From IMG/VR virus record IMGVR_UViG_2687453522_000001: a stretch of 64,000 bases of DNA. One strand, written 5' to 3'. Shown in pieces: positions 6,224 to 8,537 of this stretch. The stretch comes from a virus. Its lineage: Duplodnaviria; Heunggongvirae; Uroviricota; Caudoviricetes. The notes beneath the pieces are model-generated. The model had not been told where the DNA came from and did not search any database. It was given only the letters and a program-made list of their open reading frames with translations. Position 1 is the stretch's first letter. Each line of letters starts with the position of its first letter. The position numbers and the translations under genes were made by a program.

Positions 6224-6417
6224 TGAAACCTCGTAGAATCTGGTGTGTTAACCGATTCTACGAGTAGTCATTTGTTCATTGAGTGGGAATATTGCCGTCC
6301 GGGAGTAATATGGTATCATTAAGTTAGAGTAGGTAGTGTAGATGGAATGAGGAGTATCATATGGTTATCACACAATCAGGTTGCTTTGAGTCAGGTTGTT
6401 TTGAGTAAAACAATAAA

Positions 6418-6443
6418 ACGCCCTTTAATGGGCGTATTTTTTT
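6418..6443 (+). terminator. Rho-independent terminator-like hairpin
   Basis: acgccc tttaat gggcgt stem-loop followed by tattttttt; no plus-strand CDS upstream within the window. Confidence 0.45.
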
Positions 6444-6453
6444 AGGATTTAAA

Positions 6454-7347
6454 ATGCATTCTTTACAGAAATACATAAAACATAAATATACTCACTTAAC
6501 TTTTTTTCTCTCATTACTTTTCTTCATGATATTTGAATCTCGAGAAGATATTATCAAGAAAACATTATCTTTTTCTCTCGATGAAGTTTTACCATTCTTA
6601 ATGTTTGCGTTCTTCTCCGCCTTTATCAGCATAACGATAAAGGAAAAGATAGCAAAAAAATACCCAGAAACAAACGATGGGATTACCATTATAGCTTTAA
6701 TCTTTGGTGTAACGCTATATAGTGTATTTATATTATATTATTTATATGGTGATGTATACCAATCCACAATTGCTTTACTTATAAGTTCTGTGCTACTTGG
6801 TTCTGGGTGGTGGGTTCAGGCTACTGTGAGTAAAGTAGCCGCAAGAAAATCACACACCTTAAATACACTAATGAATCAAAGAAACAGTGAATTATTTCAC
6901 AAAAAAGTCTCATCGGTAGCGAATACGTTCGGGCTTAGAAAAACCATAAATGAAATTATTGCCAAACAAAGACTTATCCCAAATGATAAAGATTTAAAAA
7001 ATAAAAAGGTCCATGATAAATACATATCAGCAGGTAATGATATGTTCTTCGTTCTTAATTATTATGAGTTTATCTGTTCAGGAATAATAAATGGAGACTT
7101 TGATGAAGATTCAATGAGAGAATGTCTTGGACAAATTGTTCCAGGTCTCGAAGTTAGAGCATTTCATTTTATAAGAATTGCAAGAGAAATTTCAGGGAGT
7201 AGCTGCTTCTGTAATTTTGTTGCTGTTTCAGATAAATGGTCTACTAATGGAGGCTCTCTTATTCTCAGACACGAGAAAGGAGAACCTGTGATCAATAACC
7301 TGACCCATTGCTTTGAAGAAACAGCCTGTTATAACACAACATCTTAA
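6454..7347 (+). CDS. Membrane protein with about four N-terminal TM helices and a C-terminal soluble domain (function unknown)
   Basis: 297-aa ORF in an AT-rich segment; hydrophobic stretches LTFFLSLLFFMIF, VLPFLMFAFFSAFISI, ITIIALIFGVTLYSVFILYYLY, STIALLISSVLLGSGWWV; AGGA about 8 nt upstream of the ATG. Confidence 0.6.
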   Translation: MHSLQKYIKHKYTHLTFFLSLLFFMIFESREDIIKKTLSFSLDEVLPFLMFAFFSAFISITIKEKIAKKYPETNDGITIIALIFGVTLYSVFILYYLYGDVYQSTIALLISSVLLGSGWWVQATVSKVAARKSHTLNTLMNQRNSELFHKKVSSVANTFGLRKTINEIIAKQRLIPNDKDLKNKKVHDKYISAGNDMFFVLNYYEFICSGIINGDFDEDSMRECLGQIVPGLEVRAFHFIRIAREISGSSCFCNFVAVSDKWSTNGGSLILRHEKGEPVINNLTHCFEETACYNTTS

Positions 7348-7398
7348 TATTTTGTAACCCATAATCGCTTTATGGGTTACGTTAAATTTGCAATAAAA

Positions 7399-7875
7399 TT
7401 AATCGCCGCGCTTTAAGCATCCATCGTTTTTAGCTTGTTGATATAATTTACTTAGCCCAGAAAGAGGAAATGTGGCAATTTTTTCATTATCAACATAAGC
7501 ATCGATCGCATTAGCATTTGAATCTGCTGCATCTTGCCAAAAGGCATACCACCAAGAATCTCCAACCATTGACCCAAGATTGCTAAAAGGGTATTGCTCA
7601 CCATCTAATGTTAATACTATTTTACTCTTGTCAGCATTATACTCTTTTTTATTATTCGACGACCTTAGCAACAGGCCTAAACTACCGGCACTATCTGGTG
7701 ATCCATACATGAAACCCATATCACATAAAAAACTTATCTTATCACCATTTTGATTATGGATTGTATATTCTCTCCCCCCTCTATCTTCAATTACATTCCA
7801 TTGTAGAGGATCAATTTTTGCAAATACTCCTGCTGAAATTAACGATACAAATAATAAAAACCATCTCATATTCAT
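7399..7875 (-). CDS. Secreted/periplasmic protein with N-terminal signal peptide
   Basis: 158-aa ORF; N-terminus MNMRWFLLFVSLISAGVFA is a classical signal peptide; AT-rich; downstream of the small membrane protein gene on the same strand. Confidence 0.6.
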   Translation of the reverse strand: MNMRWFLLFVSLISAGVFAKIDPLQWNVIEDRGGREYTIHNQNGDKISFLCDMGFMYGSPDSAGSLGLLLRSSNNKKEYNADKSKIVLTLDGEQYPFSNLGSMVGDSWWYAFWQDAADSNANAIDAYVDNEKIATFPLSGLSKLYQQAKNDGCLKRGD

Positions 7876-7897
7876 TTTTTTCGCTTCTTATCTGTAA

Positions 7898-8248
7898 TTA
7901 TTCTGCAATATCATTTGCCCATTGCACGGCAGCAAAATGAGTGCCCAAGCCACTCAGGAAAGCAATTATTCCCAAAACAATACTAGCTGCTGTTGATTCA
8001 AACAAAGCACCAATGCTATAGCCAATAGCTCCCCATACTAAGCTAAAGACAATCATCAATGGTATTGCCAGAAATTTTATTCTTAAACTAAAAATCAGTC
8101 CAAGAAATGAACCGCCAAAGGCCCACCATGATTTAGACATTAAACCTATCAGTATTGACAGAATTCCTATTTCAATAAAGAGAATATTAGATTGCTCTTC
8201 ATTGAATTTCGCATTTGTTACACCTTTACGAACATGTTCAGATGACAT
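7898..8248 (-). CDS. Small multi-pass inner-membrane protein
   Basis: 116-aa ORF with three to four hydrophobic helices (ILFIEIGILSILIGL, FLGLIFSL, AIPLMIVFSLVWGAIGYSIGALF, IVLGIIAFLSGL); first gene of a two-gene minus-strand unit. Confidence 0.55.
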   Translation of the reverse strand: MSSEHVRKGVTNAKFNEEQSNILFIEIGILSILIGLMSKSWWAFGGSFLGLIFSLRIKFLAIPLMIVFSLVWGAIGYSIGALFESTAASIVLGIIAFLSGLGTHFAAVQWANDIAE

Positions 8249-8394
8249 GATTAACTATCTCCAGCCACAGATAAAACGCCTTAAAATAACATTTTGTAGC
8301 ACAAAGTTTCACCATGCAATGGTCAAAGTCTTTGATCCATATCAATTAGAGTTATACATTTTAGTTGCATAGCTAATAATTTATACGGACACAA

Positions 8395-8411
8395 ATTGCT
8401 CTAATTATTTT
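8395..8411 (+). promoter_or_regulatory. C1 repressor operator-like site (Op51-like) upstream of immI
   Basis: attgctctaattatttt, 15/17 match to the P1 C1 operator consensus ATTGCTCTAATAAATTT. Confidence 0.7.
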
Positions 8412-8537
8412 GTTTTTTTAGTTTCATATGCTACATTAACTCGCTTGCGTGCTAATGCATTTTCGGTTTATCCTAAACAAGCATCTTAGTAAAACGGATG
8501 CCGGGATTGGAACCCCGGATAATGCAAAAGGCGACAC

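Follow-up and report, generated by a model that had tools for sequence, protein, structure and literature searches.

P1-like phage-plasmids, which carry resistance genes, are frequent in E. coli from clinical sources and from livestock. The content of their few variable slots affects host entry by phages, among them therapeutic phages and further P1-like elements. In P1 one such slot houses the sim operon, whose product SimC is a processed periplasmic superinfection-exclusion protein. The question raised by the DNA analysed here (a stretch of 64,000 nt, referred to as the window) is what has taken the place of this operon and whether the occupants may do similar work. An earlier note on the sequence had described an AT-rich island with three ORFs at this position and had suggested that it may be a replaced or divergent exclusion or defence cassette, a reading that our analysis partly supports.

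Position, composition and edges of the island

The sharp GC drop and all three ORFs, here called A, B and C (Table 1), were seen where the earlier note had placed them. The island spans approximately 6440–8390, with pmgC on one side and the C1 operator/c4-icd-ant region on the other. GC content is 0.29–0.37 over 6200–8600 against 0.45–0.52 (about 0.47) in the flanks, and GC3 is 0.25–0.27 in A, B and C against 0.48–0.53 in pmgC, tub and ant1. The flanks are 98–99% identical to P1 and P7, and their alignment puts the island exactly at the P1 sim position, where P1 has simC-simB-simA and P7 has upf50.0/upf50.5. The island is of foreign origin and the cassette has indeed been replaced: the three sim genes of P1 are swapped for unrelated ORFs. 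The sim region has already been described in publications as a low-GC variable region (PMC9603915; PMC6906374), and the sim genes are dispensable for the lytic growth of P1 (PMC10695390).

Table 1. Features of the sim slot and its immediate surroundings (positions in the window).
Feature	Position	Strand	Description
LPsit homologue	6255..6273	-	backbone just left of the island; P1 annotation L001:1756-1774 mapped by alignment
Candidate sigma-70 promoter towards A	6292..6319	+	TTGCCG-N16-TATCAT with TG extension; consensus scan
Bidirectional intrinsic-terminator-like hairpin	6418..6435	.	GC-rich, T-run on both strands
Gene A	6454..7347	+	ORF, 297 aa; about 4 N-terminal TM helices and DUF4760 domain (aa 120-262)
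Likely shared terminator of A and C-B	7353..7381	.	hairpin with a 12-bp stem, separating the A and B stop codons
Gene B	7399..7875	-	ORF, 158 aa; predicted secreted (signal-like N-terminus), YfjT family
Gene C	7898..8248	-	ORF, 116 aa; about 4 TM segments (hydropathy), inner-membrane protein
C1 repressor operator, counterpart of P1 Oc4	8395..8411	+	right edge of the island, start of immI
isrK-like element	8481-8559	+	Rfam RF01394, 58.5 bits, above the gathering score; outside the island
C4 antisense RNA	8603-8690	+	Rfam RF01695, 76.7 bits, above the gathering score; outside the island

The orientation of the genes differs from the first description. A and the C-B pair are not divergent but convergent, tail to tail, with a common hairpin between them. 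The size and orientation of the ORFs had also been thought unlike those of the sim genes; this is true of the number and sizes of the genes and of the strand of A, but C and B run in the simABC direction. C-B thus agree with the P1 operon in slot (pmgC/LPsit to Oc4-c4), strand and reading direction (towards pmgC), whereas A lies in the slot on the opposite strand. The island and the P1 sim operon further have in common the low GC content, a dispensable slot and products with predicted signal peptides or TM segments.

On the left side lies the counterpart of LPsit, annotated in P1 and P7 as the late promoter that drives pmgC-tub-sit; its alignment columns do not vary between the window, P1, P7 and the sister element L004. 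The hairpin that follows is common to P1, where it stands after simC; here it lies about 19 nt 5′ of the ATG of A and is read from the sequence as the left edge of the foreign DNA (~6440). The operator at the right edge has 2 mismatches to the C1 consensus and aligns with the annotated P1 Oc4; the window holds 13 C1 operator sites against 0.4 expected. The terminator scan of both strands found 8 sites against 1.5 expected. Transposon-type boundaries in the form of flanking inverted or direct repeats were looked for around the island and none were found; the probable route of exchange is recombination within the conserved flanking DNA.

The candidate promoter towards A has its −10 box within a 23-bp stretch missing from P1, and promoter-like sites in the region were no more numerous in the consensus scan than in shuffles. 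The same scan yielded no strong consensus promoter for C-B. No Rfam family matched the leader of A, whose fold z-score was only −2.1. A terminator-like hairpin stands directly 5′ of A, and the expression signals of the island are ambiguous.

Two modules in a variable slot

The three ORFs had been taken for a single cassette, but across sister elements A and C-B assort separately: A has different right-hand partners in L004 and L005, and C-B occur without A in L006, L017 and L025. The island therefore consists of two independently assorting modules, A alone and C-B. The whole island is found identical in 24–33 independent plasmids, and its exact copy is frequent among E. coli from clinical urine and blood samples. 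Among PLSDB records A is present in 32, C in 67, the YfjT family (to which B belongs) in 183 and SimC in 141. The alleles of B in the slot show 93%, 37% and 29% identity, those of C and A at least 98%.

In five sister elements (L025, L017, L023, L005 and L004) a YfjT allele, with or without C, follows on the same strand directly after a protein of 172–222 aa, a full-length SimA homologue whose N-terminus is 56–93% identical to P1 SimA. The slot of most P1-like elements is occupied by an all-envelope operon of this kind, composed of the long SimA, an optional C, a YfjT allele and an optional SH3-domain TM protein. Upon inspection of their sequences, the alternative slot cargos display an N-terminal signal-like hydrophobic segment or a TM-like stretch, and the P7 annotation lists signal peptides and an outer-membrane lipoprotein. 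The P7 proteins Upf50.0 (DUF5384) and Upf50.5 (lipoprotein, with a weak, sub-threshold match to TraT) resemble the products of C-B in slot, strand and secreted or lipoprotein envelope character but have no sequence relation to A, B or C. Recombination has made the slot a hotspot at which various cargos replace one another, the hotspot itself being already known. YfjT-family operons are at least as common in it as SimC; the textbook simABC cassette is only one of its common occupants, and the DUF4760 membrane protein is an extra insert.

The C-B pair

The initial description of C as a multi-pass membrane protein and of B as a protein with a signal-like N-terminus agrees with our hydropathy scan. 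C, which has a GGAG Shine-Dalgarno sequence 9 nt 5′ of its start, is separated from B on the same strand by a gap of 22 nt, and the two therefore presumably form one operon. The hydrophobic N-terminal segment of B shows by eye an n-h-c pattern with a VFA|K cleavage motif. The AF2 model of B is beta-rich (pLDDT 85.6) with low confidence only over residues 1–20, and the family alignment reveals a conserved Cys51...Cys153 pair and a conserved Trp109. B was assigned to phrog_3429 and is 28% identical to E. coli K-12 YfjT over 143 aa (E 5e-10), the two proteins being of the same length. The Pfam model set used for the search, which did not include PF27224, gave no match for B; the PF27224:YfjT assignment is carried by P0024, the representative of its cluster (93% identical to B), and by the Salmonella allele. 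A weak second YfjT-like tblastn match at 27165-27335 is antisense to a 339-aa ORF and is due to chance.

K-12 yfjT lies in the cryptic prophage CP4-57, where its neighbours encode YpjK, a membrane protein, and YfjS, a lipoprotein. YfjT has in common with B a predicted signal peptide and the conserved Cys pair, and it too comes after a small membrane protein, together with the lipoprotein; the neighbours differ, however, YpjK and YfjS not being homologous to C, nor to A or B. C was assigned to phrog_15014, its relatives make up 16 homologue clusters, and in Pfam it has only a sub-threshold match to DUF981. The pairing of C with a YfjT protein is kept in a Salmonella P1-like element and in L025, and homologues of C are also found by themselves on chromosomes, in surroundings that look non-mobile, such as the metabolic neighbourhood of L012. 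Both genes are under purifying selection, with dN/dS values against the sister plasmids of 0.08 for C and 0.21 for B.

Gene A

Of the approximately four N-terminal TM helices proposed for A, two are strong in the hydropathy scan (44–62 and 76–94) and two weaker ones (~14–28 and 104–122) can be read by eye. Residues 120–262 match Pfam PF15956 (DUF4760) and cover profile positions 13–141 of 141; the score is 52.5 bits (E 7.7e-14), where the curated gathering threshold is 25. A belongs to phrog_21275, its relatives fall into 23 homologue clusters with invariant motifs, its AF2 model is all-helical (pLDDT 82.6) and its dN/dS against the sister plasmids is 0.08–0.10. A, which scores above the family cut-off, is borne by mobile elements like the DUF4760 proteins of temperate phages, for example gp21 of the Acinetobacter phage TRS1; A and its 23-cluster subfamily differ from the family in having three additional N-terminal TM helices. 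The earlier note had counted A among membrane and periplasmic products, but by the positive-inside rule its DUF4760 domain is predicted to be cytoplasmic, and for this reason A is unlikely to act in the way of Sim. All three ORFs of the island have homologues and dN/dS values of 0.08–0.21, and they are genuine genes.

Outside the P1-like elements A is found directly after the primase in a P4-like satellite, between the lysis genes (endolysin and spanin-like) and the integrase in Pseudomonas prophages, beside endolysin and spanin-like genes at the end of the phage Riah genome, and adjoining integrases in phi467, L027, L028 and L029, while the TRS1 relative lies in an island between tail genes. 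An IMG/VR scan for relatives of A returned 5 loci only, 3 of which were the same P1-like island. A is a lone cargo gene of unrelated temperate phages, a P4-like satellite and integrative islands, and it occurs almost only at the cargo sites of phages and satellites. In L027 an AAA_21+RloB gene pair is located near A.

Comparison with Sim and other exclusion and defence systems

The lack of a match between the ORFs and the Sim proteins, already noted at the outset, was confirmed by direct comparison: BLASTP of A, B and C against SimA, SimB and SimC gave only E>1, and when the B family was compared with SimC and SimB in hhalign the signal peptides alone aligned, with a probability of <1%. A similarity of A to lambda SieB or RexB was ruled out by hhalign of the A family (probabilities 0.2% and 0.4%). 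No match to A, B or C was found in PADLOC-DB v2, and PADLOC over all 22 A-family and 14 B-family members gave isolated chance-level matches only. The NCBIfam search of the three proteins returned only noise, and the Pfam and NCBIfam results contained no resistance or virulence family. Sequence-profile searches of the PDB with the A and B families produced nothing meaningful, the A model had no Foldseek match among the BFVD viral models, and the literature on DUF4760/PF15956, yfjT/PF27224, yfjS and ypjK yielded no functional data. The exclusion or defence function proposed at the outset thus received no computational backing, the fold searches being uninformative.

Superinfection exclusion acting at the envelope is also known from T4 Imm and Sp, P22 SieA and HK97 gp15, and lambda RexB and SieB are membrane-anchored abortive-infection proteins. 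These are likewise small prophage proteins of the inner membrane or periplasm encoded at dispensable positions, and the likeness to the island products concerns the proposed mode only.

Possible functions of the island

The best explanation, to which we give a probability of roughly 0.45, is that the island is horizontally acquired cargo of the known sim hotspot, combining a Sim-like envelope module, C-B, with a single-gene exclusion or defence candidate, A. C-B would be the version of the envelope-protein operon usual in the slot that this particular element carries. If the operon is expressed in the lysogen, its products may act in the periplasm or the inner membrane to block the DNA entry of superinfecting phages, being functionally Sim-like without homology to Sim. 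A might be a membrane-anchored protein providing phage exclusion or an abortive-infection type of defence as a single gene. What counts against this explanation is that A, B and C are not homologous to any characterised exclusion or defence protein, that the literature searched offers no functional description of DUF4760 or YfjT, that C homologues stand alone in seemingly non-mobile chromosomal settings and that the expression signals are ambiguous. The association of YfjT-family genes with SimA is weak evidence, because within the P1 sim operon a phenotype has to our knowledge been demonstrated for SimC only. The yield is three compact and conserved candidates for exclusion or defence and, for yfjT, a y-gene of E. 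coli K-12, a first pointer to a function. Until a phenotype is demonstrated the gain is modest.

A more far-reaching proposal, which we regard as possible rather than likely, is that the island represents two new, non-homologous anti-phage functions. A would then be the founder of a new family of membrane-anchored single-gene defence proteins, whose members are distributed over the prophages, P4-like satellites and phage-plasmids of both Enterobacteria and Pseudomonas. In most P1-like elements the sim exclusion operon would have the YfjT-family protein with the optional C as its true core. A stretch of 45 aa in the long SimA protein copies part of the injected Sit transglycosylase, and with this stretch SimA might serve as a periplasmic decoy and partner of the YfjT-family protein. 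Were this true, it would provide a mechanism for the decades-old Sim phenotype.

The island products could instead be factors of lysogenic conversion or host fitness that alter the cell envelope to ends other than phage exclusion, for example to help the host tolerate stress, resist serum or colicins or be immune when bacteria compete. All of them are predicted envelope proteins, and this possibility, which we hold to be rather unlikely, is consistent with the retention of YfjT beside YpjK and YfjS in a cryptic K-12 prophage, with the chromosomal metabolic neighbourhoods of C homologues, with the frequency of the exact island in urine and blood isolates and with the weakly TraT-like cargo of P7, TraT also conferring serum resistance. 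On the other hand, the P1 slot houses a proven exclusion gene, the cargo is linked to SimA homologues, A is confined almost solely to phage and satellite cargo sites, and no resistance or virulence family was matched.

A role in the lytic cycle, with A as a holin, antiholin or lysis-timing factor and C-B as helpers of injection or assembly, seems improbable. The several TM helices of A, its neighbourhood in Pseudomonas prophages and phage Riah and the proximity of the island to the late tail operon with its LPsit promoter would fit such a role. However, these genes are absent from P1, P7 and most P1-like elements, all of them fully viable, and the slot is non-essential; there are no lysis genes near A in P1-like elements, in the P4-like satellite or in phi467 and the other integrase-adjacent loci L027–L029; and A and C-B are not part of the late operon but are bracketed by terminator-like hairpins of their own.

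An addiction-type or toxin/immunity module can also be imagined, in which a membrane toxin (C or A) and a neutralising partner would stabilise the plasmid prophage. Toxicity is frequent among small multi-TM proteins, only 22 nt separate C from B, and P1-like plasmids need stability functions. Such a module is highly improbable in our view: a secreted B would be an unusual antitoxin, B-family genes are mostly found without C (183 versus 67 records), C stands alone elsewhere, and no partner of A is conserved over the seven contexts compared.

Finally, the low GC content and the absence of annotated functions might suggest that the ORFs are relics in decay or have arisen by chance in AT-rich junk DNA. 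This notion is effectively refuted by the conservation data: the dN/dS values are low, homologues of full length are found in different genera, the AF2 models have good confidence and the island is identical in independent plasmids; decay does occur at the locus, as L005 carries a 56-aa remnant of B.

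Organization of the sim slot

The AT-rich island of this P1-like phage-plasmid, which an IncY plasmid carries in identical form, lies between flanks that are 98–99% identical to P1 and P7. As the earlier note had proposed, it occupies the interval that holds simC-simB-simA in P1; the P7 occupants are upf50.0 and upf50.5. The three ORFs, A, B and C, were recovered where that note had placed them, and the drop in base composition was evident (GC 0.29–0.37 over ~6200–8600 vs. 0.45–0.52 on either side); GC3 is 0.25–0.27 in A, B and C and 0.48–0.53 in pmgC, tub and ant1. A, B and C are real genes, since their dN/dS values against sister plasmids are low (0.08–0.10, 0.21 and 0.08, respectively), PHROG families exist for each and all three have homologues in other genera.

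Features of the sim slot and its surroundings in the window
Feature	Position	Strand	Description
Sit/tape-measure-like protein	362–4057	-	1231 aa
pmgC	5657–6223		left of the island, as is the stretch homologous to the late promoter LPsit
Candidate promoter	6292–6319		extended -10 box, directed toward A; consensus scan
GC-rich hairpin	6418–6435		T-runs on both strands; ~19 nt 5' of the A ATG
A	6454–7347	+	297 aa ORF
B	7399–7875	-	158 aa ORF
C	7898–8248	-	116 aa ORF
C1 operator	8395–8411		right of the island
KilAC-domain antirepressor-like gene	8963–10054	+	363 aa; positional counterpart of P1 ant1
KilAC-domain antirepressor-like gene	10219–11019	+	266 aa; positional counterpart of P1 kilA

Two expectations concerning the layout were not borne out. 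A and the C-B unit are not divergent but converge on a common hairpin (7353–7381), and instead of a single three-gene cassette there are two modules, A alone and C-B, which assort independently. In the sister elements L004 and L005, A is found at 98–99% identity beside quite different right-hand genes, while L006, L025 and one Salmonella P1-like element carry C-B without A. The slot in the window holds two functional cargo modules, both of foreign origin. In L005, recombination has left a scar: a 56-aa remnant of B adjoins another allele of the gene.

Searches at an identity of at least 99.7% recovered the whole island from 24 plasmids of PLSDB and from 33 E. coli genomes that are complete; the carriers are all P1-like plasmids of ~90–100 kb, many of them from human urine or blood isolates, and none of the deposited phage genomes contains it. 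By tblastn, A was found in 32 PLSDB records, C in 67 (51 enterobacterial), the B family in 183 and SimC in 141. In NZ_CP173465.1, IS200C is inserted within an otherwise identical island.

On the left, P1 homology runs from pmgC through LPsit to the GC-rich hairpin, whose P1 counterpart comes after simC, and P7 homology ends earlier (~6275). On the right, homology restarts at the C1 operator, which is of the Oc4 type; beyond it lie an isrK-like element and C4 RNA, followed by icd and ant. No inverted or direct repeats flanking the island were found, so its cargo was probably swapped by recombination within the conserved flanks. The candidate promoter falls in a 23-bp stretch absent from P1; promoter-like sites in the island region show no excess over shuffled sequence, and the scan gave no convincing consensus promoter for C-B. 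The leader of A contains, at 6377–6406 on the plus strand, a 15-bp tandem duplication (TCAGGTTGCTTTGAG / TCAGGTTGTTTTGAG) that is single-copy in P1.

Module C-B and the sim operon

By predicted location, C-B is an envelope module and A a membrane-anchored cytoplasmic protein. B has a predicted N-terminal signal sequence (VFA|K site, by inspection); Cys51 and Trp109 are invariant in its family alignment and Cys153 nearly so, and the AlphaFold model is confident and beta-rich (pLDDT >90 for the mature part). C has ~4 TM helices by hydropathy and a conserved N-terminal motif predicted to be cytoplasmic; its homologues form 16 clusters, some standing alone in other contexts.

In P1-like elements the slot is usually filled by an operon on the simABC strand, comprising, in this order, a secreted protein of 172–222 aa, optionally C, a YfjT allele (99%, 93%, 37% or 29% identical to B) and, also optionally, an SH3-domain TM protein. 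Because the secreted proteins match P1 SimA (52 aa) at the N-terminus with 56–93% identity, the latter looks like a truncated remnant of them. Inspection of the alternative cargos at the slot showed that they carry either a signal-like segment or a hydrophobic stretch resembling a TM helix. C-B is tied to the P1 sim operon by position and association; homology to SimB and SimC was sought, but none was found.

Many P1-like elements have a long SimA (L005:4992–5639, L004:6302–6820 and L017:4234–4902 among the sister elements), which is absent from the window. In a comparison with window 848–1132, within the Sit gene, residues 122–168 of long SimA are 49% identical (E 6e-9) to Sit residues 1028–1070, directly C-terminal of the SLT transglycosylase domain (849–958), and this match raises the possibility that long SimA could serve as a periplasmic decoy for that segment of the injected Sit protein. 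In a metagenomic contig (L013:439–1242), a DUF4431 protein, similar in its C-terminal half to the long SimA N-domain (E ~3e-9), is encoded 13 nt upstream of a C homologue, which suggests that the SimA-like/C linkage recurs outside P1-like elements. Sit itself bears near its N-terminus a ~60-aa near-perfect tandem duplication (LKGERVATVDPVSRSVSALNRTIENSRPDFV...AMKRLNLGD twice), and its annotated gene span varies among sister plasmids (3393–3750 bp).

Module A

Residues 120–262 of A score above the Pfam threshold for DUF4760. Hydrophobic helices lie at ~14–28, 44–62, 76–94 and 104–122, and the lysine-rich N-terminus, loop 63–75 and the post-TM4 segment point to an N-in/C-in topology, in which DUF4760 and the six cysteines it contains would be cytoplasmic. 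The subfamily comprises only 23 clusters, with invariant polar motifs (Q122, R131, H134-T135, N137, Q142-R143-N144-S145, N202-Y-Y-E-F206 and D217). The AF2 model is all-helical (pLDDT 82.6) and had no specific match in PDB or BFVD searches.

The A homologues found are always mobile-element cargo: 3' of the primase in a P4-like satellite of Erwinia, separating lysozyme/spanin-like genes from the integrase in prophages of Pseudomonas, adjoining an integrase in phage phi467, a Klebsiella plasmid and the loci L027 (with an AAA_21 and RloB gene pair nearby) and L028, at the end of the phage Riah genome, and, in Acinetobacter phage TRS1, flanked by tail genes in an island for which a separate terminator is annotated. 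No partner gene is common to all the contexts examined.

Possible role of the island

The sim locus is known as a dispensable, low-GC variable slot (PMC9603915; PMC6906374; PMC10695390), and neither the hotspot nor its variability is new; A and B belong to families that have names, DUF4760 and YfjT, but are uncharacterised. The position of the island, the mobile-element association, the recurrence of envelope features in all alternative cargos and the strong divergence among B alleles of a single locus lead us to propose, tentatively and with a probability of about 0.45, that the island has an anti-phage role. C-B would then act in a Sim-like manner, keeping phage DNA from passing the envelope, and A would be a single-gene defence of the exclusion or abortive-infection type. 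Several observations count against such a role: A, B and C showed no homology to exclusion or defence proteins that have been characterised, no literature on the function of DUF4760 or YfjT proteins was found, the fold matches were uninformative, C homologues occur in apparently non-mobile contexts, and the promoter signals of the modules are ambiguous. The main rival explanation, a function in envelope fitness or lysogenic conversion, seems to us rather unlikely. If A, B and C do exclude phages, they would be a non-homologous counterpart of a known system type at a known location; an anti-phage role would be useful and testable, yet no surprise to a P1 specialist.

Neighbouring immI region and P7 cargo

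The immI control region (8468–8900; c4 RNA, its target sites and icd) shows strong divergence from both P1 and P7. Its part 8481–8893 resembles phage D6 more closely (87% identity) and also gives an Rfam isrK match; immI specificity probably differs from that of P1 and P7. The two consecutive KilAC-domain genes are similar to each other in their C-terminal halves.

In P7, the upf50.5 lipoprotein of the same slot (L002:2348–2869) has a glycine-zipper motif and a weak, sub-threshold Pfam match (E 7e-5) to TraT, the surface-exclusion lipoprotein of the F plasmid; its RefSeq label, 'DNA methyltransferase', looks like a misannotation.
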